Shown here: positions 6,420-42,045 of the stretch, piece after piece | How positions within the stretch are numbered: the stretch's first letter is position 1 | How the letters are laid out: each line of letters begins with the position of its first letter | Source of the DNA: Escherichia phage Pride | Sequence record: KX534341.1 | Direction: 5' to 3' (one strand) | Length of the DNA stretch: 44,899 nucleotides | The notes under the pieces: generated by a model | What the model was told of the DNA's origin: nothing | Seen by the model: the letters and a program-made list of their open reading frames with translations, nothing else | Databases searched by the model: none | Program-made: the position numbers and the translations under genes

Positions 6420-6782
6420 ATGGCTAAAGCACCACTCTTCACTCTTGACCCTAAGCCGACCTTTAAGCTGCCGATTGAGATCCCGCGCCCTGGTGAGAAC
6501 GAACCCGGCAAGATGACGTTTACCGTCCGTCACCGCCCGATCGACGAATTTTCGCAGACCATGCAGGACACCGAACGCAAGCTGTCGGAATATGACGACA
6601 ATGACCCGGACGGCTTTAACGTTATGGTCGAGGCCATCATGCACGTCGCAGAAGGCTGGAATCTGCCAGACGAATTTAACGCGGAGAACGTCCGCCGCCT
6701 GGTGGTCAACTATCCTCGCGCGTTCGGTGTGTTCCATACGTCGTACTATCTCGAACTGATGGGCTTGCGTGAAAAAAACTAA
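6420..6782 (+). CDS. Tail assembly chaperone (lambda G-like)
   Basis: Acidic ~120-aa ORF directly upstream of the tape measure gene; ends at a slippery site followed by an open -1 frame. Confidence 0.7.
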   Translation: MAKAPLFTLDPKPTFKLPIEIPRPGENEPGKMTFTVRHRPIDEFSQTMQDTERKLSEYDDNDPDGFNVMVEAIMHVAEGWNLPDEFNAENVRRLVVNYPRAFGVFHTSYYLELMGLREKN

Positions 6783-7099
6783 TTGAGGCGGCGCGACGCT
6801 TTTATGGCCCGCCGCCACCCTCCGAAGATTTAGCCGCAAGTTTATGGGGTGCGTCCCCCGAAGATGTTTGTCCGCCTGTTGCGTTATGGCCTGACAACGC
6901 GAAGATAGTCGCAGTATTCACGGATTGTGCCACGCAATGGCGCACCGGATTTGGTGGCGCATACGGCATCGATTACGGCGTGCTGGAGTGGTTATTTAAG
7001 ATGCACGGTATCGAAAACGAGCAGCGCGCGTTTAAAGATATCAAGCTAATGGAACGAATCGCGCTTGATGAAATGGCGCAGCAGAACCACGCACAGTGA
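6420..7099 (+). CDS. Tail assembly chaperone frameshift product (lambda GT-like), made by -1 ribosomal slippage at A AAA AAC (6773..6779)
   Basis: The -1 frame is closed by a TGA at 6770..6772 and then open for 107 codons from 6779 to TGA 7097..7099 with no start codon of its own; slippery heptamer sits at the 0-frame stop. Confidence 0.7.
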
Positions 7100-7100
7100 A

Positions 7101-7425
7101 GCGGGACAAAGCGGGATGTCCCGTTTTGTCCCGCCTCTGTAAAACTGCATATCTAATCACTCCCATTGCATAAACCAAAAGAGGGACAGGCGGGACGTCC
7201 CGTTTTGTCCCACCCCATAAATGTGCATATCTATTCGCATTTCGTGCATAAAACAAACGGGACAAAAAGCGGGACAGACCAGGGGCGGGACAAAGCGGGA
7301 CAGCACCCCGTCCCCGCCAGTGCTGCCGCTGGTTTCAGCCGATCGGGACAGCGGGACAGCACCCCAGTCTTTCAGACTAGACGGGGGTCTGGCACCCCCC
7401 TCGTCTGAGACTGCATAGGGTTTGT
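7101..7425. repeat. GGGACA-array element, copy A: palindromic GGGACA sites (7101..7133, 7183..7211), duplicated TGCATA..GGGACA module, four direct GCGGGACA repeats (7259..7302), two more (7345..7358) and a conserved GC hairpin
   Basis: Direct reading; about 165 bp (7256..7413) aligns with 35432..35590 at roughly 85-90 percent identity. Confidence 0.8.
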
Positions 7426-7481
7426 TTGAAATTCGCTGATACAATGTCAATCGGCAACTGAATAAAAAAGGGGACTGCATA

Positions 7482-10124
7482 ATGGCAGATCAGGCAGCAG
7501 GCATCACGCTAAAGGCGGATGTTGCACAAATCAGAACGGCGAATACTGTGCTTGATTCATTCGCACAGAAATCCGAGAACACAGAAAACAAGGTTAAGAA
7601 ATTAAACGACACCCTCGGCAAATCCAAAAAGGTGACGAGTGACGCCGCGGGCGGAATGGAGAAGCTGGCGACTGAATCGCAGCGCGCTGCCGATGGCATG
7701 ACGAAACAGGAGCGACTTGCCAACAGGTTAGGCATGTCGACCAAAAACCTGGGCTTTGCCTCGCGTAACGCCGCATTCCAGTTACAGGATATCGCAGTTA
7801 CGCTTGAGATGGGGATGCCGGTACACCGCGTTATGCTTCAGCAGTTACCGCAGTTAACTGGGGCGTTCGGGGGATTGGGTAACACGCTGCGTTATGTGGC
7901 GGGATTCCTCGGCCCAGTAGGGATCGGCATTGCCGCACTAACGGCAACGTTAGGCGTCGGCGTGGCAGTTACGACCCGAGCAGAAAACCAGGTCGCAGCG
8001 CTTAACAAGACGCTGGCGCTGTCGGGTAACATTTCCGGCCTCACCGCTAACCAGATCCTTGTGCTGTCTGAGAACGCTGAGCGCATGGGCTGGTCATTCC
8101 GCAAGACGCGAGACACCATTCAGGCACTGGCGGCGGCGGGCGTTAAAGCGGGTGCGGACTTCGGCGCGCTGGCGAAAGTGGTGAATGACTTTGCGAAGGC
8201 GTCTAATCAGCCGATCTCTGACGTGGTTGAATCCATCTCAAAATTGTCGAACGACCCGGTCGGTGGACTGCGCGCACTGGCGGACCAGTATCACGTCGTT
8301 ACCGAGGCGCAGATCCAGCAGGTGCAATCACTAGTGACGGCTGGTCGAGAAACCGAAGCGGTGGCGCTGGCGAACAAAACCGCCGCTGCGTCGTTCTCCA
8401 GCATGACCAATGAGATCAAGTCCAACATGGGTACGCTCGAGCGGTCTATGAACGTCGTCACATCTGCAGCCAAATCCATGTGGGACGCCATCCTGGATGT
8501 AGGACGCGCGCAGTCATCGAATGAGTCCGAGATGAAAGCGCGTGAATCCTTGCAGCGCATGACCACGGCTTACTATGCCGAGATGAAAGCGGTAAACGCT
8601 GCCGGTGGGGTGATGACCGAGGCGCAGAAAGCGCGTATTAACATGCTTTACAGCGAACTGGTCGCCCAGGAAAAGGTGGTGGCGTCGCTCACCCTGCGCA
8701 ACCGCGCCGAGCGAGACAACGCCAGCGCCGCTGACGAAGCAGCAAAGGCGAACGAGGAGGCAAACCGCACCGCCCGCGACCGCGCCGCGTTTGAGAAGGA
8801 GTACGCAACCAACGCGAAGCGGCGAGCCGACGAGATCGCCCGCCTCAATTTGCTGAATAAGCGCGGTGTTATTAACGAGAAAGAACTAGCCGAGGCGGTG
8901 AAGCAGGTCAACGAGCGCTACAAAGACCCAGCACCGAAAAAGGCGGCGGCAATTCGAGTCGATGCCGGGCTGAAAATGCTGGAAGTCGCGCGAAGCGAAT
9001 TAGCCCAGCTTCGTGAGTCTGGAAAGCAGATCGAAGCCAACGCATCGACGCAGACCCGCACGCAACGCGCGCAAGCGGCCCTTAACAAGCTGATCGCGGA
9101 CCATGAACAGTTAATCGCGGCGAGCAAAGAAAGGGCGCTGACGGCAGCAGAAAAGCAGCAAATGGCGGAGTTCGAGTCGGTTAAATCGGTACGCGAGCAG
9201 ATCGTCGAAGAAGCCAAATTGCTGGACGCGAAAGAGAAGCAGATCAAGGCACACGCCCAGGTCGAAGCATTCATCAAGAACCAGAACGCCGAGCTAAAAG
9301 CCACCGCGGCGGGCTATGCGCTTTCTACTCGCGAAGCGGCTAACCTGCGCGAAGAGTTGCAGCTAATTGACCGCCTTCAGCGTGCCGGTGCTAACGATAC
9401 TGATATTGACAAGGCGGTGTATAAGCTGCGTGAGGTTCAGGAAGCACAGACCGGTGCTAACGCCTCATTATGGGATGGATTCAGTCGCGGGCTTCGCGAT
9501 AGTGTGGATGAAATGGGTAACGGATACACGCAGATGTCGTCACTCACAAAATTCACGTTCGGTGCTATGCAGGACACGATGAACGAGTTTTTCGAGACTG
9601 GCAAGCTGAACGCAAAAGATATGGTTAAGTCCATTCTGAGCGAATTAATAAAGCTGGCTACCTCGCAGGCGTTCAAGTCCATCGTTAGCGCTTTCGGTGG
9701 CGACGGCGGCAAAAACGGATTGTTCGGCGCTATCTTCTCGGGCCTCACTAAGAATGCGGACGGCGGAGCGTACACCGGAGGCAATCTCGCGGCCTATTCG
9801 GGGCAAGTGGTGAGCCAGCCTACCTTTTTCAGTTATGGCGTCCAGGCGTTCGCTAAGGGCGCTGGGTTGATGGGTGAGGCTGGACCCGAGGCCATCATGC
9901 CACTGAAGCGCGGGCCGGACGGGAAACTGGGCGTTGCCGCGTCTGGCGCAGGCGGTGGTATGGTCGTGACGACTAACGTTTACACGGGGACCGGTAAGAC
10001 GGATACCAGTGTTGGCGGGCCGGACCCACGTACCGCGCAGGCGTTCGGCAAGCAAATCACCGAGGCGGTGAAGGCCGAGATCGTGAAGGCGATGAAACCG
10101 GGTGGTGTACTTTACAAACGATGA
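7482..10124 (+). CDS. Tape measure protein
   Basis: 880-aa ORF rich in A/Q/K/E coiled-coil-like sequence, between G/GT chaperone and tail-tip genes; AAGGGGA RBS. Confidence 0.85.
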   Translation: MADQAAGITLKADVAQIRTANTVLDSFAQKSENTENKVKKLNDTLGKSKKVTSDAAGGMEKLATESQRAADGMTKQERLANRLGMSTKNLGFASRNAAFQLQDIAVTLEMGMPVHRVMLQQLPQLTGAFGGLGNTLRYVAGFLGPVGIGIAALTATLGVGVAVTTRAENQVAALNKTLALSGNISGLTANQILVLSENAERMGWSFRKTRDTIQALAAAGVKAGADFGALAKVVNDFAKASNQPISDVVESISKLSNDPVGGLRALADQYHVVTEAQIQQVQSLVTAGRETEAVALANKTAAASFSSMTNEIKSNMGTLERSMNVVTSAAKSMWDAILDVGRAQSSNESEMKARESLQRMTTAYYAEMKAVNAAGGVMTEAQKARINMLYSELVAQEKVVASLTLRNRAERDNASAADEAAKANEEANRTARDRAAFEKEYATNAKRRADEIARLNLLNKRGVINEKELAEAVKQVNERYKDPAPKKAAAIRVDAGLKMLEVARSELAQLRESGKQIEANASTQTRTQRAQAALNKLIADHEQLIAASKERALTAAEKQQMAEFESVKSVREQIVEEAKLLDAKEKQIKAHAQVEAFIKNQNAELKATAAGYALSTREAANLREELQLIDRLQRAGANDTDIDKAVYKLREVQEAQTGANASLWDGFSRGLRDSVDEMGNGYTQMSSLTKFTFGAMQDTMNEFFETGKLNAKDMVKSILSELIKLATSQAFKSIVSAFGGDGGKNGLFGAIFSGLTKNADGGAYTGGNLAAYSGQVVSQPTFFSYGVQAFAKGAGLMGEAGPEAIMPLKRGPDGKLGVAASGAGGGMVVTTNVYTGTGKTDTSVGGPDPRTAQAFGKQITEAVKAEIVKAMKPGGVLYKR

Positions 10125-25039: not shown

Positions 25040-25067
25040 AAATGGCGGGACAAGCCCGCCGTATTAA

Positions 25068-32462: not shown

Positions 32463-32492
32463 ATGATAGATTGGTTGCAGGATGGGTGTCAA
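32463..32492 (-). promoter_or_regulatory. Predicted leftward early promoter (TTGACA-N18-TATCAT) with GCAACCAAT motif in spacer
   Basis: -35 at 32487..32492 and -10 at 32463..32468 on minus strand; upstream of minus operon beginning at 32266. Confidence 0.5.
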
Positions 32493-32537: not shown

Positions 32538-32561
32538 TAACCAATAAGAGACAATGAGACG
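32504..32561 (-). ncRNA. Candidate small RNA (~55-60 nt) transcribed leftward from a TTGAAA-N16-TAATAA promoter and ended by the 32504..32537 terminator
   Basis: Promoter elements on minus strand at 32591..32596 (-35) and 32569..32574 (-10); no ORF; terminator immediately downstream. Confidence 0.2.
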
Positions 32562-32608
32562 GGAATTATTATTACACGCGTGCGCGCCCGTTTCAATATC
32601 CAAAGGAT

Positions 32609-32668: not shown

Positions 32669-32998
32669 ATGAATATCAAAGAAGCAATTGAAGTGTTATC
32701 TAATGCAATCCGCGGCGAAGCGGGTAAATCCTGGTATTACACAAATGCGGTGGATACTCTGTTATTTGAAGTGTCCAGATTATCGCGTGCTGAGAAGGAG
32801 CTTACCGCGAAGCTGGAATTGCTCAACGGCACGGCAGCAAGCAAGCTGCAAAAACACAATGAAGAAATGGAAGAATACAAAAAACAGGTTATCCGTCTAC
32901 GTGAGGAAGGTAAATCCTGGGCGATGATTGCCGAGTTGACCGGAATTAATCAGAGCACAGTGCGCTCCTGGGTACGCAATAATAAAACTTCTAAGTAA
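32669..32998 (+). CDS. Helix-turn-helix DNA-binding protein (putative transcriptional regulator)
   Basis: CAGGAG RBS; C-terminal HTH-like segment (SWAMIAELTGINQSTVRSWV). Confidence 0.6.
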   Translation: MNIKEAIEVLSNAIRGEAGKSWYYTNAVDTLLFEVSRLSRAEKELTAKLELLNGTAASKLQKHNEEMEEYKKQVIRLREEGKSWAMIAELTGINQSTVRSWVRNNKTSK

Positions 32999-33008
32999 GG
33001 CCACGGCA

Positions 33009-35273
33009 ATGAGCTTAATTAAATTCGCTGTAACAAGACCCGCTAAAAAAGGCGAAAAAGCCAGGGCGGAAAACTTCCAGATGACGACCGATGAATTTTT
33101 CGAATTTATCAAAGATGCGAAAGAGATATCGTCGGTGCATATCAACAAGACGGAAGATAAAGCCGAGTATGCGCGCCGCAAGCGTAAGGCCGATGGCATC
33201 GTAGCGTATACCAGTGACGGCTTACGCCGCAAGACCAGTGCGGTGGACCGCTCGATCCTGTTCTTCGATATTGACCGTACCGACACCCGCACCCTACGCC
33301 GCTGCCGTAAGGCTTTCATCGACGCGGGGCTGGAGCACGTATTTCACACCACAACCGGCGACCGCCACCCGCTGAAAGGCGGCACGCGTTGCGCTCGTTT
33401 CCTGGTGCTCACCGACAAGCCTGTACCGGCTGAAGACCTGGGCCGCGTCCAGTACGCACTATTACACCAACTGGGCCTGTCAGATGTGGACTTCGATGAT
33501 TGTACGAAAGACACAAACCGCCTGATGTACCTGCCACACCAGCAGTCTGTTATTAAGTGCCACTACGGCAAGCGTGCCCGCGTCCGTCGTCTGCTTCGCC
33601 TGGCGGATAAGTTGGGCGTGGAGAAGGAGGAAGTACGCCGCGAGCTTACCCAGGGCGACGACGCAGTGGCAGACGGCATTCTGGACTGGTGCTTCCAGGC
33701 AGGATTCGAGGAGTTATCTTCCGGTCGCGGTTATGAAGTGCCGTGCCCGAACGAACATCTGCACAGCGGCGAAGGGTCGACGGCTATCATGGTCAAGGAT
33801 GGCGAGATCCGTTTCAAGTGTATGCACACCGGCAACGAGTGTTGCTCGGAACTGAACAGACACCAGCACCTGGCGCTACGTCTTATCGGGATCCCGGACC
33901 ACCTGAACGTCGAGCCGCACAACATGTCACGTAAGCAAATCGCCGCCATCCTTCCGGGACTGGACGATGAGGAAGTGGAATCGTGCTATGAACATATCGT
34001 TGATGCGGTCGGAGACGGCGACGAGTACGGCGTGTGTACTGATGCAGACCTGGACAACGAGCCGGTCGCACTGTTCAGTAAGCACGACCCGATCATCGAA
34101 GGCCTGGTCAACTTCAAATCGACCTGGTATCTCGCCGGTGAGTCGAACATTGGCAAGTCGTTCTACGTGCTGGGCCAGATGGCGTCAGTATCTGCCGGTA
34201 TTCCGTTCGGCGGTGCGAAGGTCGTCCAGTCTCATTGCTTCTATTTCGATGCGGAAGGTGGTGAGGCCTCCAACCAGCGTAAAGAAGCACTGCAGATCAA
34301 ATATGAGCACGACCTGGACAAGCTGCACATTATCGATCTGCAATCACGCGGCTGGGATATCACCAGCAAATCCGGCTTGCGTGAAGTTATCAGCTTCATC
34401 AACCGCACCGCTAACGGCGAGCCGGTTGGCCTGGTGGCGTTCGACTCACTCAACCAGACTGTTGCGCTGCGGTCCGCCGATGCAAAACCGTTCGACGAGA
34501 ATAACGCCAGCGATATGGGTGAAGTGGTCAAAGCGCTGAAGGCCATTGCGGAAAATACAGGCGGCAGTGCGGGCGTCATCCACCACCCGGCGAAGGGTGC
34601 AAACGGCAGCAGATCTCCCCGTGGGTCCGGCGCGCTGCATGGCGCTGTCGATTCTGCGTTCTTCCTGGAACAGCCGGACGACAACCAGCCAGGTCAACTC
34701 AACCTGTATCACGAAAAATCCCGTAACGGCATCAAGCAAGCGCCGCGCGGCTTCGTCCTGCTCAAGTGCAAGGTTAAGGTGGATCTCCGCAAGTCCGAGG
34801 CGTTCGAAGCCCACCAGTCCACCAGCACCGGGCCGGACTTCGGTGACGTCGTTGCCGGTTGGGACGTCAAGCCGATTGCCTCCACGCCACGCGACGAGAC
34901 TCTTTACCTCGTACCGGTCGCCCTGGCACCGTTCGCCATTGAGCAGGCAAAGGCCGCTGGCAAGGCCGCAGTTAAGGAAGAGAACGCCGCAGGACCGCGC
35001 AACGAAAAAGAGAAAGTGCTTTATGCAGCGCTGGAAAAACTGATGGAAGATAACCCGGACCATACCGGATTCAGCAAATCGGCAATTGTCCGCCAGGCTG
35101 GGCTTGCGAAAGGTGGCACATCGACGAAGGCAATTGACGATATGGTCGAGCGCGGCGTGCTCGGTTTTTATACCGATCCGCACACCGGGGCCATCTATGG
35201 GTCGTCGAATATCGTCATCAAAACGAAGATACCCATCACGCTTTCGGCGACCGATGACGACTTAAAAGATTAA
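33009..35273 (+). CDS. Bifunctional DNA primase / replicative helicase (primase-polymerase-like N-terminus, zinc ribbon, RecA/DnaB-like ATPase)
   Basis: ILFFDIDRTD acidic motif; Cys/His zinc cluster (CPNEHLH...CMHTGNEC); Walker A GESNIGKS; VIHHPAKG. Confidence 0.75.
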   Translation: MSLIKFAVTRPAKKGEKARAENFQMTTDEFFEFIKDAKEISSVHINKTEDKAEYARRKRKADGIVAYTSDGLRRKTSAVDRSILFFDIDRTDTRTLRRCRKAFIDAGLEHVFHTTTGDRHPLKGGTRCARFLVLTDKPVPAEDLGRVQYALLHQLGLSDVDFDDCTKDTNRLMYLPHQQSVIKCHYGKRARVRRLLRLADKLGVEKEEVRRELTQGDDAVADGILDWCFQAGFEELSSGRGYEVPCPNEHLHSGEGSTAIMVKDGEIRFKCMHTGNECCSELNRHQHLALRLIGIPDHLNVEPHNMSRKQIAAILPGLDDEEVESCYEHIVDAVGDGDEYGVCTDADLDNEPVALFSKHDPIIEGLVNFKSTWYLAGESNIGKSFYVLGQMASVSAGIPFGGAKVVQSHCFYFDAEGGEASNQRKEALQIKYEHDLDKLHIIDLQSRGWDITSKSGLREVISFINRTANGEPVGLVAFDSLNQTVALRSADAKPFDENNASDMGEVVKALKAIAENTGGSAGVIHHPAKGANGSRSPRGSGALHGAVDSAFFLEQPDDNQPGQLNLYHEKSRNGIKQAPRGFVLLKCKVKVDLRKSEAFEAHQSTSTGPDFGDVVAGWDVKPIASTPRDETLYLVPVALAPFAIEQAKAAGKAAVKEENAAGPRNEKEKVLYAALEKLMEDNPDHTGFSKSAIVRQAGLAKGGTSTKAIDDMVERGVLGFYTDPHTGAIYGSSNIVIKTKIPITLSATDDDLKD

Positions 35274-35410
35274 AATTTGCGCGCATTGGTCGCCGATATG
35301 GGGATTCCCATATCGCTAGACGATTAAATTTTGCGCGCATTGGTTGCCATTTTGAGTGTTTTTATCTGGTCGTATTGGTTGCCGTGTAGTGTGAATATAG
35401 TGAATAGTTA

Positions 35411-35592
35411 TGCAGTTTTATTGCATAAAGTAAGCGGGACAAAAAGCGGGACAAACAAGGGGCGGGACAAAGCGGGACAGCACCCCCGTCCCGCCACGGA
35501 TGGCGCGGCTTCCAGAGGAGCGGGACAGCGGGACAGCACCCCAGTCTTTCAGACTAGACGGGGGTCAATGGCCCCCCTCGTCTGAGACTGAA
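35411..35592. repeat. GGGACA-array element, copy B (homologous to 7256..7413), preceded by direct repeats TTGCGCGCATTGGT(C/T)GCC at 35271..35294 and 35325..35350
   Basis: Four GCGGGACA direct repeats, GGGACAGCGGGACAGCACCCCAGTCTTTCAGACTAGACGGGGG...CCCCCCTCGTCTGAGACTG conserved in both copies. Confidence 0.8.
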
Positions 35593-35749
35593 TAAAATCC
35601 GGGGATTGCAAAATACACGGCAGCATGATGCTAAGTGCGGTCGTCGATGAACTAGGCAACCAATGCAGGTTGTATTATGCTGAGTGAAAATGCGGTTTGC
35701 AGTCACAGCAGATAGCGATCAACTTTTTCATGCGCGTGATTAATATTGG

Positions 35750-35778
35750 TTGCACCCTGCCTGGCGCCCTGCTATATT
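35750..35778 (+). promoter_or_regulatory. Predicted promoter (TTGCAC-N17-TATATT) with two ATTGGTTGCAC motifs
   Basis: -35 35750..35755, -10 35773..35778; -10 and leader nearly identical to the promoter of the 714..1478 gene. Confidence 0.5.
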
Positions 35779-35806
35779 GGTTGCACACCAACAAGAGGAC
35801 TGAACG

Positions 35807-36112
35807 ATGAAAGCATTAATCTGGAATTACACATCAGCGGTCGCAGCGCTCTATGAAGCGAAGCACACAAACGGCAACGCCGACCACGCACGCCAGGCTG
35901 TAATGTTCGCGCAGCAGGCAATCTTTGCAGCGTTCGACAACATGGGCGTCAGCCTGGATGAACTGGAACCATTGCGTGTGGCAATCTGCGAGTATGCGAT
36001 GAAATTCGCCCGTGAGCGTCTTGCGTACCGGTTTGGCATCGGAGAGACGGCAGTGACTAACATCGCTCGCATCACGGCTCAGCGTGAGCTGCACGCCTTA
36101 CTTGCGAAATAA
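35807..36112 (+). CDS. Hypothetical protein
   Basis: ORF with AAGAGGA RBS. Confidence 0.6.
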   Translation: MKALIWNYTSAVAALYEAKHTNGNADHARQAVMFAQQAIFAAFDNMGVSLDELEPLRVAICEYAMKFARERLAYRFGIGETAVTNIARITAQRELHALLAK

Positions 36113-36121
36113 GGGGCTAAA

Positions 36122-36391
36122 ATGGCACGTAGACGCGCTAAATGGTTATCCTGGTATATTCCCCTGCATAGCATCCGTTTATGGGCGCAGAATGCGATTG
36201 AGGGTGATTCTGTGTTCTGGAGCTATCGGGATGACGTCAAGCCGCTGACGCAGACCAAAATGCTGCACCAGTTCATGAACGAACACGGACTGCCGGTGAA
36301 AACATCATTGCAACCAATCGGCATCCGTATTACATTACGCCGTAAGCCAATCGTTGCGCAGGTTGGCAAACACAAGAGACTGAGCAAATGA
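36122..36391 (+). CDS. Hypothetical protein
   Basis: ORF in operon context. Confidence 0.55.
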   Translation: MARRRAKWLSWYIPLHSIRLWAQNAIEGDSVFWSYRDDVKPLTQTKMLHQFMNEHGLPVKTSLQPIGIRITLRRKPIVAQVGKHKRLSK

Positions 36392-37228: not shown

Positions 37229-37500
37229 TATATTGGTTTGGATTGGGGTGCGCGACACTCTTTGCCACGGTGCTGGCGCTGTTGGTATGGGTGTTCCTGA
37301 TTTGGCCCGCGGTGGAAGCAGCCAGCATTACCCGCATGACGTTCCAGATATACAAGCGCCGTGGCATCACGGAGCACCCTACCAGGTTGCGCATGTGGTG
37401 GCTATGGTATCGCGATATGATCGGCGGGCGAATGTTCGAGGCCGTCCGATCGGAAGGGTGGGAGTGGAAAGGCGTCGGCAAGTGGTCCATTTTCGATTAA
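37213..37500 (+). CDS. Membrane protein (two TM segments), upstream of lysis cassette
   Basis: Hydrophobic segments FGLGCATLFATVLALLVWVFLIWPAV. Confidence 0.5.
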   Translation: MLHDLIYWFGLGCATLFATVLALLVWVFLIWPAVEAASITRMTFQIYKRRGITEHPTRLRMWWLWYRDMIGGRMFEAVRSEGWEWKGVGKWSIFD

Positions 37501-39979: not shown

Positions 39980-40108
39980 CGGCAACCAGTAATCCTCCCA
40001 GCCTGCCGATTTGGTGGGCTTTTTTGTGCCTGTTATAATCCCCTCAGATGGCAGGGCCGTCTCTTATGTTGCCGATGGTCGGCGCATATGCACAAAAGGG
40101 CTTATATC

Positions 40109-40660
40109 ATGGCAGAAATTAAAGTTAAAGGTCGTCGCGCTAAACTGGACGGACGAGTCGCAGTAACCCCGCGCCGTAAACCAGGCGAGCAAACAGAGCA
40201 TACCAATCTCGGACCTGAGATCGAATATGGCAAGCGTCGTAAAGGCGGCAAATGCGGACGCCCTACTGACTACAGATCCGTTTACTGCGACCAGCTTCGC
40301 CGCTATTTTGCCGACGCCGACGCCTGGCAGGTCAACTACTCCGATAAAGGCGCTGCGCAAGTAATTCCCCGCAACAAAATGCCAACCTTCGGTCGATTTG
40401 CCGCGGAAATCGGCGTTGGCGTCGCTTGCCTGTATCGCTGGGCGCGTGCACATGAGGAGTTCGCCGAGGCTATGGCGGACGCTATGGAGCTACAGAAAAC
40501 TTTCCTGATGGAAGCTGGCGGCGTTACCATCGCGGCGGGCTTCGCCACGTTCCTGCTTAAAGCCAACCACGGCGTCCGCGATGATGTTCCACTGGATGAC
40601 GACGAAGATGATAACGGCGACGTCGTTGTCGAACCTACCGGCAAAGGCCAGGGTGAGTAA
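40109..40660 (+). CDS. Terminase small subunit (putative)
   Basis: Gene immediately upstream of and overlapping the terminase large subunit; basic N-terminus, acidic C-terminus; ATG 40109 with AAAGGG RBS preferred over 40088. Confidence 0.55.
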   Translation: MAEIKVKGRRAKLDGRVAVTPRRKPGEQTEHTNLGPEIEYGKRRKGGKCGRPTDYRSVYCDQLRRYFADADAWQVNYSDKGAAQVIPRNKMPTFGRFAAEIGVGVACLYRWARAHEEFAEAMADAMELQKTFLMEAGGVTIAAGFATFLLKANHGVRDDVPLDDDEDDNGDVVVEPTGKGQGE

Positions 40661-42045
40661 TGCGTAATTATGCGGCAGAACACCGCGCCCTGGAACGCGC
40701 GATCGCAAAGCGCAACCGACCGCCGCGCCCTACGCGTGTTGCGCAGGCCGTCCGCCTGTATCAGCCTGATTGCCTTCCCCACCAGGTGGAACTACTGCGC
40801 GATACAAAGACCAAAATCCTCGGCCTGTGTTCCGGCTTCGGTGGCGGTAAGTCATGGGTTGCGGCGCGCAAGGTCATCCAGCTTCTGACACTGAACCCTG
40901 GTCATGACGGCATCGTTACAGAACCGACAATCCCCCTCCTGGTTAAAATCATGTACCCGGAATTGGAAAAGGCGTTTGACGAGGCGGGCTTCCGGTGGAA
41001 GTTCAATAAGCAGGACAAGATCTATAACGTGCTTGTGAAAGGCAAATGGACCCGCGTTATCTGTGAATCAATGGAGAACTATACCCGCCTGATCGGGGTC
41101 AACGCCGCGTGGATTGTTGCCGATGAATTCGACACCACGAAGCAGGACGTTGCGCTGGCGGCGTATCACAAATTGCTCGGCCGTCTGCGTGCGGGTCTGG
41201 TCCGCCAGTTTGTCATCGTGTCCACCCCGGAAGGCTACCGGGCAATGTACCAGATTTTCGAGGTGGAGAAAGACAACCAGAAACGCTTGATCCGGGCGAA
41301 GACCACGGACAACCACCATTTACCGGCAGACTTTATCGACACGCTCCGTAGTCAGTACCCAGCTAACCTGATCGACGCGTACCTGAACGGCCTGTTTGTT
41401 AACCTTACGTCGGGCGCGGTATACAAGATGTTTAACCGTGAGGAGAACGCCAGCACCGAAGAAGTGCAACCGGACGACACGCTGATTATCGGTATGGACT
41501 TTAACGTCACGAAAATGGCGGCGGTCGTGTACGTCAGACGGCAGCGCATCACCGAAAACAAGGAGTTCCGCGACGAGATTCACGCAGTGGATGAATTTGT
41601 GGACCTGTTTGATACCCCGGCTATGATTGAGGCGATCGAGGAGCGATACCCCGATCATTGTGCTGCCGGTCGTGTTGTTGTTTACCCGGATAGCAGCGGC
41701 AAGTCTCGCAAGACTGTCAACGCATCGTCGTCCGATATCGCGCAACTGGAAGACGCGGGCTTCGAGGTGGAGTATGACAGCGTTAACCCTCCCGTGAAAG
41801 ACCGATTGATCGCGATGAATACGATGATGTGCAACTCGAAGGGCGTGCGCCAGTATTTTGTCAACCTGGATAAATGCCCTACACTAGCGAAATGTCTGGA
41901 ACAGCAGGTCTACGACCTGAAGAAAGGCGAGCCGGATAAAACCGCCGGTGTGGACCACATGAACGATGCCGCGGGCTATCCAATTGCGCACCTGTTCCCA
42001 GTGATTCGTCCGATCGCCGTTGTTCCAACTGTAGACTTCTACTAA
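40660..42045 (+). CDS. Terminase large subunit
   Basis: Walker A-like GFGGGKS, Walker B-like (WIVADEFD), C-terminal nuclease-like acidic residues; followed by portal. Confidence 0.85.
   Translation: MRNYAAEHRALERAIAKRNRPPRPTRVAQAVRLYQPDCLPHQVELLRDTKTKILGLCSGFGGGKSWVAARKVIQLLTLNPGHDGIVTEPTIPLLVKIMYPELEKAFDEAGFRWKFNKQDKIYNVLVKGKWTRVICESMENYTRLIGVNAAWIVADEFDTTKQDVALAAYHKLLGRLRAGLVRQFVIVSTPEGYRAMYQIFEVEKDNQKRLIRAKTTDNHHLPADFIDTLRSQYPANLIDAYLNGLFVNLTSGAVYKMFNREENASTEEVQPDDTLIIGMDFNVTKMAAVVYVRRQRITENKEFRDEIHAVDEFVDLFDTPAMIEAIEERYPDHCAAGRVVVYPDSSGKSRKTVNASSSDIAQLEDAGFEVEYDSVNPPVKDRLIAMNTMMCNSKGVRQYFVNLDKCPTLAKCLEQQVYDLKKGEPDKTAGVDHMNDAAGYPIAHLFPVIRPIAVVPTVDFY

Follow-up and report, generated by a model that had tools for sequence, protein, structure and literature searches.

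A duplicated repeat and stem-loop element of Escherichia phage Pride as a candidate two-site replication origin

The DNA analyzed here (hereafter the window; 44,899 nucleotides, sequence record KX534341.1) comes from Escherichia phage Pride, a Dhillonvirus whose positions 6800-7700 are 100% identical to Escherichia phage Gluttony. An earlier note on this DNA had claimed that an element of ~160 bp, composed of short repeats and a hairpin, is duplicated in the two largest non-coding regions, and this proved to be the case. The late genes are on the plus strand and run from ~35.8 kb to the window end and, wrapping round, on to 19.4 kb, while the replication genes occupy the minus strand from 19.4 to 32.4 kb. 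Between these blocks lies a short plus-strand operon in which a gene for a 109-aa helix-turn-helix (HTH) protein is followed by the gene for a 754-aa helicase-primase. One copy of the element (copy A) is found inside the tail operon, in a gap of 381 bp (7101-7481) that has the tail chaperone G/T genes on one side and the tape measure gene on the other. The second copy (copy B) is found in a gap of 533 bp (35274-35806) directly 3' of the helicase-primase gene, and the distance from copy A to copy B is 16.7 kb. The place of copy A is indeed as unusual as it had been called, and this gap is kept out to Edwardsiella phage eiAU.

Architecture of the two copies

The cores of the two copies (7253-7420 and 35430-35597) are ~87-90% identical, and most differences fall within the hairpin loop or the spacer that separates the arrays. 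Both copies show the same order, i.e., four direct units, an inverted or degenerate unit, a spacer of ~40 bp, two adjacent units and a 49-nt imperfect stem-loop. The start-to-start distances of the four direct units (12, 16 and 10 bp) and of the further pair (8 bp) are alike in both copies and agree with the previous description of four direct repeats at 10-16 bp and an additional pair; the coordinates of all features are collected in Table 1. The imperfect GC hairpin of that description is present as well, but it is longer than described (~20 bp with bulges). Copy A additionally contains a tandemly duplicated module of ~78 bp, previously noticed as a TGCATA..GGGACA duplication with palindromic GGGACA sites, which consists of a palindrome (two direct and two inverted units) and a subsequent AT-rich stretch, TGCATA...TGCATAAA (z = -7.4). 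A conserved AT-rich segment of ~40 bp adjoins each array, for which a role in unwinding is a candidate function only. The second AT-rich module was found in all lineages in the form ..ATGCA..N..TG(A/C)ATAAATAAG.

The exact unit GCGGGACA occurs at 13 sites in the window (both strands), as compared to a computed expectation of ~1.4 for a random 8-mer, and 12 of these 13 sites are in the two regions (the remaining site is at 25045). For the shorter motif GGGACA, 17 of 23 sites in the window are in the two regions, with 17.9 sites expected genome-wide. As the genome-wide total of GGGACA is not unusual, the signal is the clustering.

Table 1. Features of copy A, copy B and the helicase-primase operon (window coordinates)
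Feature	Position	Strand	Remark
Copy A, palindromic cluster 1: two direct and two inverted GGGACA-type units (GCGGGACAAAGCGGGA, TGTCCCGTTTTGTCCCGC)	7101..7134	.	Directly after the T segment stop codon (starts 1 base past it)
Copy A, AT-rich module 1 (TGCATA...TGCATAAA)	7140..7179	.	
Copy A, palindromic cluster 2	7181..7213	.	Duplicate of cluster 1 (92% over 25 nt)
Copy A, AT-rich module 2, ends in TGCATAAA	7218..7256	.	Common to copy B; candidate DNA-unwinding region
Copy A, four direct GCGGGACA-type units	7257..7302	+	Starts 7257, 7269, 7285, 7295
Copy A, spacer with degenerate inverted unit (GTCCCCGCC)	7303..7342	.	Sequence copy-specific
Copy A, two adjacent units (TCGGGACAGCGGGACA)	7343..7358	+	14 and 22 nt 5' of stem-loop
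Copy A, imperfect stem-loop, CAGTCTTTCAGACTAGACGGGGG-loop-CCCCCCTCGTCTGAGACTG	7365..7413	.	Single-stranded DNA z = -3.6, 0/200 shuffles
Small sigma-70 region-4-like HTH protein	32669..32998	+	First gene of helicase-primase operon (operon status: bioRxiv 10.64898/2026.07.10.737580)
Helicase-primase gene, 754 aa	33009..35273	+	Proposed trans-acting reader of the 8-mers
Winged-helix coding part of helicase-primase	35004..35219	+	Model residues 19-90
Copy B region, three ATTGGT(T/C)GCC motifs	35285..35382	+	Helicase-primase stop codon to element
Copy B, AT-rich segment (TGAATATAGTGAATAGTTATGCAGTTTTATTGCATAAAGTAA)	35392..35433	.	
Copy B, four direct GCGGGACA units	35434..35479	+	Starts 35434, 35446, 35462, 35472
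Copy B, inverted unit (GCGGGACG, minus strand)	35487..35494	-	
Copy B, two adjacent units (GCGGGACAGCGGGACA)	35520..35535	+	
Copy B, imperfect stem-loop	35542..35590	.	Arms as copy A, loop different; single-stranded DNA z = -3.8

The terminal stem-loop is a real conserved structure, for which RNA or single-stranded DNA, of either strand, are candidate forms. Folded as single-stranded DNA, 10 of 10 lineage versions were more stable than shuffled controls (z -2.6 to -4.0), and folded as RNA, all 16 variants compared (15 from Dhillonvirus and one from eiAU) reached -25 to -30 kcal/mol. Compensatory changes were found on both sides of the stem, i.e., A...T to G...C flanking GAC/GTC (L207 and L208, two of the sister lineages described below) and TCAGAC/GTCTGA to AGAGAC/GTCTCT (L212); the corresponding eiAU stem reads AGAGGA/TCCTCT. 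Apical variants still pair via U-A, U.G or C-G, and the pairing register in the middle of the stem varies. The use of G.U pairs as an indicator of the strand was dropped, as the plus and minus strands of the hairpin fold equally well and RNA and DNA are thus not separable in this way.

Three open reading frames (ORFs) are listed in the copy A gap (7157-7480, minus strand; 7166-7408 and 7221-7418, plus strand). Comparison of relatives and of the two copies did not reveal a conserved reading frame in these ORFs, and they are unlikely to be genes: relatives are separated by 1-nt indels and by loops of variable length, and the two copies by frame-breaking indels.

Distribution of the element and replacement of its unit

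The core of the element was found in all 158 of 158 Dhillonvirus GenBank records, in at least two copies in each (336 places in all). The element itself is not a new sighting. The record of Sodalis phage SO-1 (NC_013600) annotates a "region A" and a "region B" at the same two positions as regions that resemble each other and contain direct, inverted and palindromic repeats; the part of this annotation that was read, up to the word "possible", is a description of the repeats only. In the searchable literature we found no papers that analyze the units, the sister lineages or a binding protein of the element. In some genomes, copies A and B share variants, which suggests exchange between the copies.

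Outside the genus, both copies are retained in eiAU, which has a DNA polymerase that is 63% identical and gaps at both equivalent positions. The end of gap A in eiAU follows the same plan in other words, i.e., TCGCCCCG/CGCCCGCCCC repeats, an AT-rich spacer, more repeats and a stem-loop. The core of this stem-loop (AGACGGGGGT...CCCCTCGTC) is as in Dhillonvirus, and the outer stem differs on both sides. A blastn search with the eiAU element matched eiAU only. When outgroups were sought by tblastn with the tail chaperone, the matches were swamped by T1-like phages, and scans of viral contigs with the 14-mer GGGACAGCGGGACA and with a hairpin-core pattern yielded mostly chance matches and mostly unrelated GC hairpins, respectively.

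What is new here is that, in sister lineages, the sequence of the unit (its word) has been replaced on a scaffold that is kept, and that in two sample-matched cases both copies were replaced together. The sister lineages are metagenomic and were found through homologues of the helicase-primase (66-70% identity) and of the chaperone (57-65%). All of them keep the scaffold, with units at ~108, 95, 80, 70, 55, 23 and 14 nt from the hairpin. The unit is GCGGGACA in the window and in L203, L207 and L208; GTGTGGCA in L204, L205 and L211; GTGTGCCA in L209 and L212; G(G)GTGCCA in L206 and L213; and TCGCCCCG/CGCCCGCCCC in eiAU. Clusters of two direct and two inverted units, like cluster 1 of copy A, are built from the lineage's own unit in L207, L209 and L211. 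Sample ERR13731138 contains L211 (copy A) and L205 (copy B) with one word, and sample SRR25999232 contains L209 (copy A) and L212 (copy B), again with one word. Units occur in both orientations, and whether the unit ~95 nt 5' of the hairpin is direct or inverted depends on the lineage, which fits recognition as duplex DNA and not a fixed RNA fold. Replacement of a word in concert at two unlinked loci, on a fixed scaffold and with indifference to orientation, is what would be expected of duplex-DNA sites that co-evolve with a trans-acting protein. Judged by these sequence comparisons, each lineage has its own word, and the words behave as protein-binding sites on double-stranded DNA.

The spacer between the arrays contains a conserved AT-rich TGATTTATAAGG-type motif in the sister lineages (L205 3870-3895, L206 3865-3885, L207 2945-2965, L208 3255-3275 and L212 2880-2900) and in eiAU, where two copies of the motif in gap B form a 28-nt inverted repeat ~195 nt apart. 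In Dhillonvirus proper, the spacer is GC-rich and copy-specific instead. Sites for integration host factor (IHF) in the spacer were considered and dropped, as the IHF consensus was not found there.

The sister lineages and eiAU also have one or two small minus-strand ORFs (57-126 aa) 5' of the element in the gap that follows the T segment and precedes the tape measure gene (L207 2274-2654, L208 2274-3022, L209 2262-2435, L211 2277-2450 and, in the eiAU sequence L124, 42365-42718). These ORFs mark the gap as a recurrent insertion site for extra genes.

A candidate two-site origin and its alternatives

Copy B is always located directly 3' of the helicase-primase gene (in Dhillonvirus, four sister lineages and eiAU), and this protein is the proposed reader of the units. 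Its N-terminal domain (~residues 1-350) has the fold of an archaeo-eukaryotic primase (AEP) primase-polymerase, with the AEP domain of cyanophage S-2L PrimPol as top structural match (E = 3.3e-5), and its middle domain (residues 357-531) is an AAA_25 helicase of the RepA/DnaB type, with a weak match to RepA (1g8y; E = 0.47). The C-terminus was modelled with AlphaFold2 as a winged helix with H1-b-H2-H3-b-b topology (core pLDDT 83-94). All top Foldseek matches of this model are DNA-binding proteins of the winged-helix type (among them MarR-family regulators in complex with DNA, linker histones, ArsR, IclR and ORC), with weak E-values (at least 0.03). Pfam and PDB sequence searches of the C-terminal tail were uninformative beyond a weak hint at the eS25 winged helix, and a 127-aa C-terminal fragment used alone as protein query gave 2 matches.

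Between genera, conservation of the helicase-primase is lowest in the winged helix; compared to eiAU, the protein is 45% identical over ~690 residues, and the last ~65 residues do not align. The winged-helix residues at the starts of H2 and H3 differ with the unit, i.e., FSKS/GGT with GCGGGACA, FSRR/GGSSTKP with GTGTGGCA, FSAR/GGSTSKP with GTGTGCCA and FSK[AS]/GGST[TS]TA with GGTGCCA. From the distinct recognition sequence of P0010 (FSAR...GGSTSKP) a distinct word was predicted, and the locus, when then read, carried GTGTGCCA.

We consider it slightly more probable than an even chance that the two elements represent a two-site iteron-type replication origin, which by analogy would work like P4 ori/crr, RSF1010 oriV and the stem-loop origin of pRN1. 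Clustering of short repeats in a non-coding region, by which iteron origins are recognized, is found here for 12 of 13 sites at conserved positions. From the architecture, the conservation, the unit replacement, the predicted folds and the correlation between winged helix and unit, all of which are observed, we infer each of the following steps. Each cis-acting site would have a scaffold of an AT-rich segment, an array of 8-bp iterons in both orientations and a long stem-loop. The helicase-primase would bind the 8-mers via its C-terminal winged helix and multimerize on the array. The AT-rich DNA, which in copy A has head-to-head unit clusters on its flanks, would open, and the RepA/DnaB-type helicase ring would be loaded. 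The AEP primase domain may then use the extruded stem-loop as its signal for loading or priming. Copy B, by the gene of its putative initiator, and copy A could represent two origins or, as in P4 ori/crr, an origin and a distant enhancer. A more specific version, in which a single fused AEP-primase/SF4-helicase/winged-helix protein reads an 8-bp word at both loci of a bipartite origin and in which word and recognition residues have been re-coded at least four or five times on a fixed scaffold, is put forward tentatively, as something less probable than an even chance.

P4 has two separate loci, ori and crr, with repeats that are 8-bp units present in either orientation. The phage studied here likewise has 8-bp units in both orientations at two loci, and these adjoin a primase-helicase with a predicted winged helix. 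In P4, the alpha protein, a single primase-helicase, recognizes short repeats at the origin through a C-terminal winged helix (PMC4234260). On the other hand, alpha combines a Toprim primase with a superfamily 3 (SF3) helicase, whereas an AEP primase and a RepA/DnaB-type AAA_25 helicase are found here, and the phage element has a conserved long stem-loop. No sequence similarity of the helicase-primase to solved relatives, alpha included, was detected in the PDB. The phage system is thus not a member of the P4 alpha group by homology, although it may work like one.

The iterons of RSF1010 are ~20 bp long, as compared to the 8-bp units of the phage. Both systems have a RepA-like helicase (AAA_25 class), iterons, AT-rich DNA and stem-loops; in RSF1010 oriV, the stem-loops are exposed on unwinding and are recognized by an AEP-related primase (PMC4234260). 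Conversely, RSF1010 uses separate RepC, RepA and RepB' proteins, functions that are apparently fused in one phage polypeptide, and its ssiA and ssiB hairpins are on opposite strands, as compared to one stem-loop per phage element. In plasmid pRN1 (orf56/orf904), a small DNA-binding protein is followed by an AEP-primase/helicase/winged-helix protein and, just 3', by a stem-loop that is required for replication, and an equivalent stem-loop origin has been proposed for Bordetella phage BIP-1 (PMC4234260). The order in the phage is identical and is kept in Dhillonvirus and four sister lineages, with a significant stem-loop in every lineage; a Bordetella phage DNA polymerase is also a distant homologue (41% identity) of the polymerase of this phage. 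However, pRN1 has an SF3 helicase, a stem-loop of ~100 nt (49 nt in the phage), no iterons and no second copy. With its combination of an AEP primase and an SF4-type helicase, its 8-bp units and its duplication, the phage origin candidate is therefore not a homology-based member of the P4, RSF1010 or pRN1 systems.

In phage HK578, the operon of the HTH protein and the helicase-primase (gp45-gp46) has been treated as a replication-initiation module, and origin hairpins have been linked to sensing by OLD; HK578 escapes OLD via helicase-primase mutations, and no origin was mapped for it (bioRxiv 10.64898/2026.07.10.737580). This work is consistent with a two-site origin.

Several observations weigh against an origin. 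No mapped origin for any Dhillonvirus was found in the literature, and the GC skew follows gene orientation and gives no origin signal. An 8-bp unit at an irregular spacing of 8-16 bp is atypical as compared to classical iterons of 17-22 bp. Jerseyvirus and Kagunavirus have the same helicase-primase family with winged helix, yet their representatives SETP7 and K1ind2, respectively, are without the gaps, and no comparable or otherwise conspicuous arrays were seen in them. The correlation between winged helix and unit is based on about seven lineages with four or five unit types and is confounded by linkage, as the end of the winged-helix coding part is located 60-160 bp from copy B, and this end and copy B could have been exchanged as one recombination module. 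The pairing of copies A and B in one phage was assumed from a shared metagenomic sample. Conservation of the hairpin, for which covariation among relatives had been proposed as a check, was evident in all ten lineage versions, but covariation is weak, with double changes in 2 of 12 pairs of the consensus fold. The hairpin is conserved mostly at the plain sequence level, in particular in an invariant 5' arm (AGTCTTTCAGACT), which suggests recognition by a protein. Finally, both copies are co-oriented with the flanking late genes and placed 5' of late-gene blocks, a position that would suit transcription too.

Three candidate functions had been named before, i.e., an iteron-like origin, a binding array for a phage regulator and a structured RNA, and the comparison favors the origin. 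In the second of these, which we regard as unlikely, the arrays would be sites at which a phage transcription regulator (activator, roadblock or insulator) controls two late-gene blocks, with the hairpin as a terminator-like or processing signal. Long plus-strand late blocks indeed follow both copies in the same orientation (copy B precedes lysis, terminase and head genes, and copy A precedes tape measure and tail genes), and promoter-like sequences are found 3' of copy A (TGATACAAT, 7437-7445) and copy B (TTGCAC-N17-TATATT, 35750-35778). A partial stop after the chaperone genes and before the tape measure gene would also suit the stoichiometry of these proteins, and concerted replacement of the units fits any co-evolving DNA-binding protein. 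However, nearby there is only one obvious dedicated HTH protein, and it stays invariant where the units differ; the protein region that varies with the unit belongs to the helicase-primase. Activation would be awkward, as the arrays end ~90-110 bp 5' of the start of the putative tape measure promoter with the 49-nt hairpin in between, and the promoter downstream of copy B is ~200 bp off. Nor does the hairpin resemble an intrinsic terminator, as the sequences directly after the stem (AATAAAATCC for copy B, CATAGGGTTTG for copy A) are not U-tracts, and a terminator scan gave no plus-strand flag.

Action of the element as RNA, i.e., as a structured leader present twice on late transcripts (for antitermination as with HK022 put, as an RNase III or stability site, or for titration of an RNA-binding protein), appears improbable. 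The two copies are in the transcribed orientation, as are putL and putR of HK022, the repeats contain GGA and loosely resemble CsrA-type sites, and the stem-loop with its pairing apical variants is strongly conserved. On the other hand, the Rfam/Infernal scan that had been proposed matched no family in the whole window (Rfam 15, gathering thresholds), and with the limit relaxed to E = 10, positions 7000-7600 gave only chance-level miRNA-type matches. The element as a whole folds barely more stably than its shuffled versions do (z -1.7 to -1.8), and it does so equally well on the plus and on the minus strand. The flip in orientation at a fixed position would rewire any RNA structure, and the change of the word from G-rich to mixed or C-rich across lineages would be hard to follow for one RNA-binding partner. 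Consensus scans also found no conserved sigma-70 promoter directly upstream. A structured RNA that spans the arrays is thus not supported. We attach very little probability to the element as a pac site, a partition-like site, a recombination hotspot or a neutral duplication kept by gene conversion. P1 pac and other terminase-binding sites have repeat arrays that flank a central region, the eiAU record begins inside its gap A, and variants are shared between copies A and B. Headful packaging with permuted ends is, however, predicted for Dhillonvirus (PMC9022532), neither copy is close to the terminase genes (40088-42045), and ends of records or contigs inside the element are explained by assembly breaks at the 160-bp repeat. 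Virulent phages have no need for partition, and units and stems that are near-invariant in 158 genomes, in two copies that persist out to eiAU, argue against neutrality.

Further candidates were considered and dropped: GACAAAGCG as P22 boxB (direct repeats cannot form a boxB stem), mimicry of the E. coli type I-E CRISPR repeat (copy A only and partial), a sigma-54 promoter in the loop of copy A (absent from copy B), DnaA boxes in the AT-rich segment (inconsistent matches of 7-8 of 9 positions), and KOPS, Chi sites and T7-type primase GTC recognition sites (lack of support).

If the two-site origin is correct, the lineages would represent a natural series of mutually orthogonal initiator/origin pairs, which may underlie replication incompatibility or exclusion among co-infecting relatives, with the copy A locus in a role like that of P4 crr. 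In that case, OLD or Lamassu could also detect these phages by the single-stranded hairpins of the palindromic clusters and the stem-loop, a link to recent work in which hairpin-forming origins were proposed to be sensed by defence systems. Dhillonviruses are among the most often isolated E. coli siphoviruses and are used as phage therapy candidates, in the BASEL collection and in studies of defence systems; with a defined cis element and a likely reader, their origin would become directly testable. For genome engineering, the two "empty" gaps should not be taken as dispensable cargo sites, and the specificity-swapped initiator/origin pairs would provide material for studies on co-evolution of words and proteins. 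A two-copy element would also explain why metagenome assemblies break at two fixed points and is a warning for metagenomic recovery.

Neighboring motifs and other observations

Short-read assemblies do break at the ~160-bp repeat: L194 begins at a point 96 nt 5' of the tape measure gene, L204 and L206 break off within arrays, and record NC_073059 stops within the element. One contig of 27.6 kb appears to span the unique segment from copy A to copy B.

The helicase-primase ends in ...SATDDDLKD (35250-35273), an acidic tail that is conserved family-wide as D/E-D/E-D-L-x-D/N. It recalls the acidic C-terminal tails of T7 gp4 and gp2.5, which contact the DNA polymerase. Among the other products of the phage are a gp2.5-like single-strand-binding protein and a Pol I-type polymerase.

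Because the DNA-binding half of the small HTH protein is invariant across all lineages, this protein more likely reads the conserved motif ATTGGTTGC than the variable units. In the form ATTGGTTGCA, this motif provides about nine sigma-70-type promoters across the genome with their -35 hexamer (TTGCAN as -35, a 16-18-nt spacer and TATAnT as -10, oriented with each gene). Sites of ATTGGTTGCA are at 1502, 1516, 17617, 20666, 22339, 22356 and 25298 on the minus strand and at 32470, 35745 and 35776 on the plus strand. With at most 1 mismatch, there are 27 matches as compared to 12.4 expected, and none of 100 shuffles reached 27. Two of these promoters share the leader GGTTGCACACCAACAA(C)GAGGAC. It is plausible, as judged from these sequences, that the small HTH protein reads this -35-like motif and acts as a repressor or an appropriator. 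Both eiAU gaps contain clusters of the motif too, in the form GCAACCAA.

The variant ATTGGTTGCC flanks the elements (35285, 35339, 35374 and 35656), not at promoter spacing, and its class is conserved in all lineages. Sister lineages (L203-L206, L212 and L213) have two or three tandem copies of TGAATTGGTTGCCA from the last helicase-primase codons (E-L-V-A) past the stop. The ATTGGTTGCC and TGAATTGGTTGCCA motifs may represent a second set of protein sites of the origin region.

The extended -10-like TGATACAAT is located 24 nt past the stem-loop of copy A and 37 nt before the tape measure start codon. At this position, the sister lineages L207-L211 have TACAAT or TAAACT, followed by (A)TCGGCAACA (7450-7458 in the window), and the motif CGGCARCA also occurs 3' of copy B. 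The tape measure and distal tail genes may thus have their own promoter; consensus scans for sigma-70 promoters and terminators gave no plus-strand site in either region. In K1ind2 (L125), promoters at ~32560-32600, 36090-36130 and 37390-37430 have an operator-like motif (GTGAATAGT / ACTATTCAC), which resembles GTGAATAGTTATGCA in the AT-rich segment of copy B.

The T segment of the tail chaperone (6782-7100), which immediately precedes copy A, lacks its own start codon near the 5' end; the ORF list has no plus-strand entry of at least 60 aa there, and the Gluttony annotation gives a 40-aa ORF only. These observations are consistent with production of the T segment by a programmed frameshift from G.

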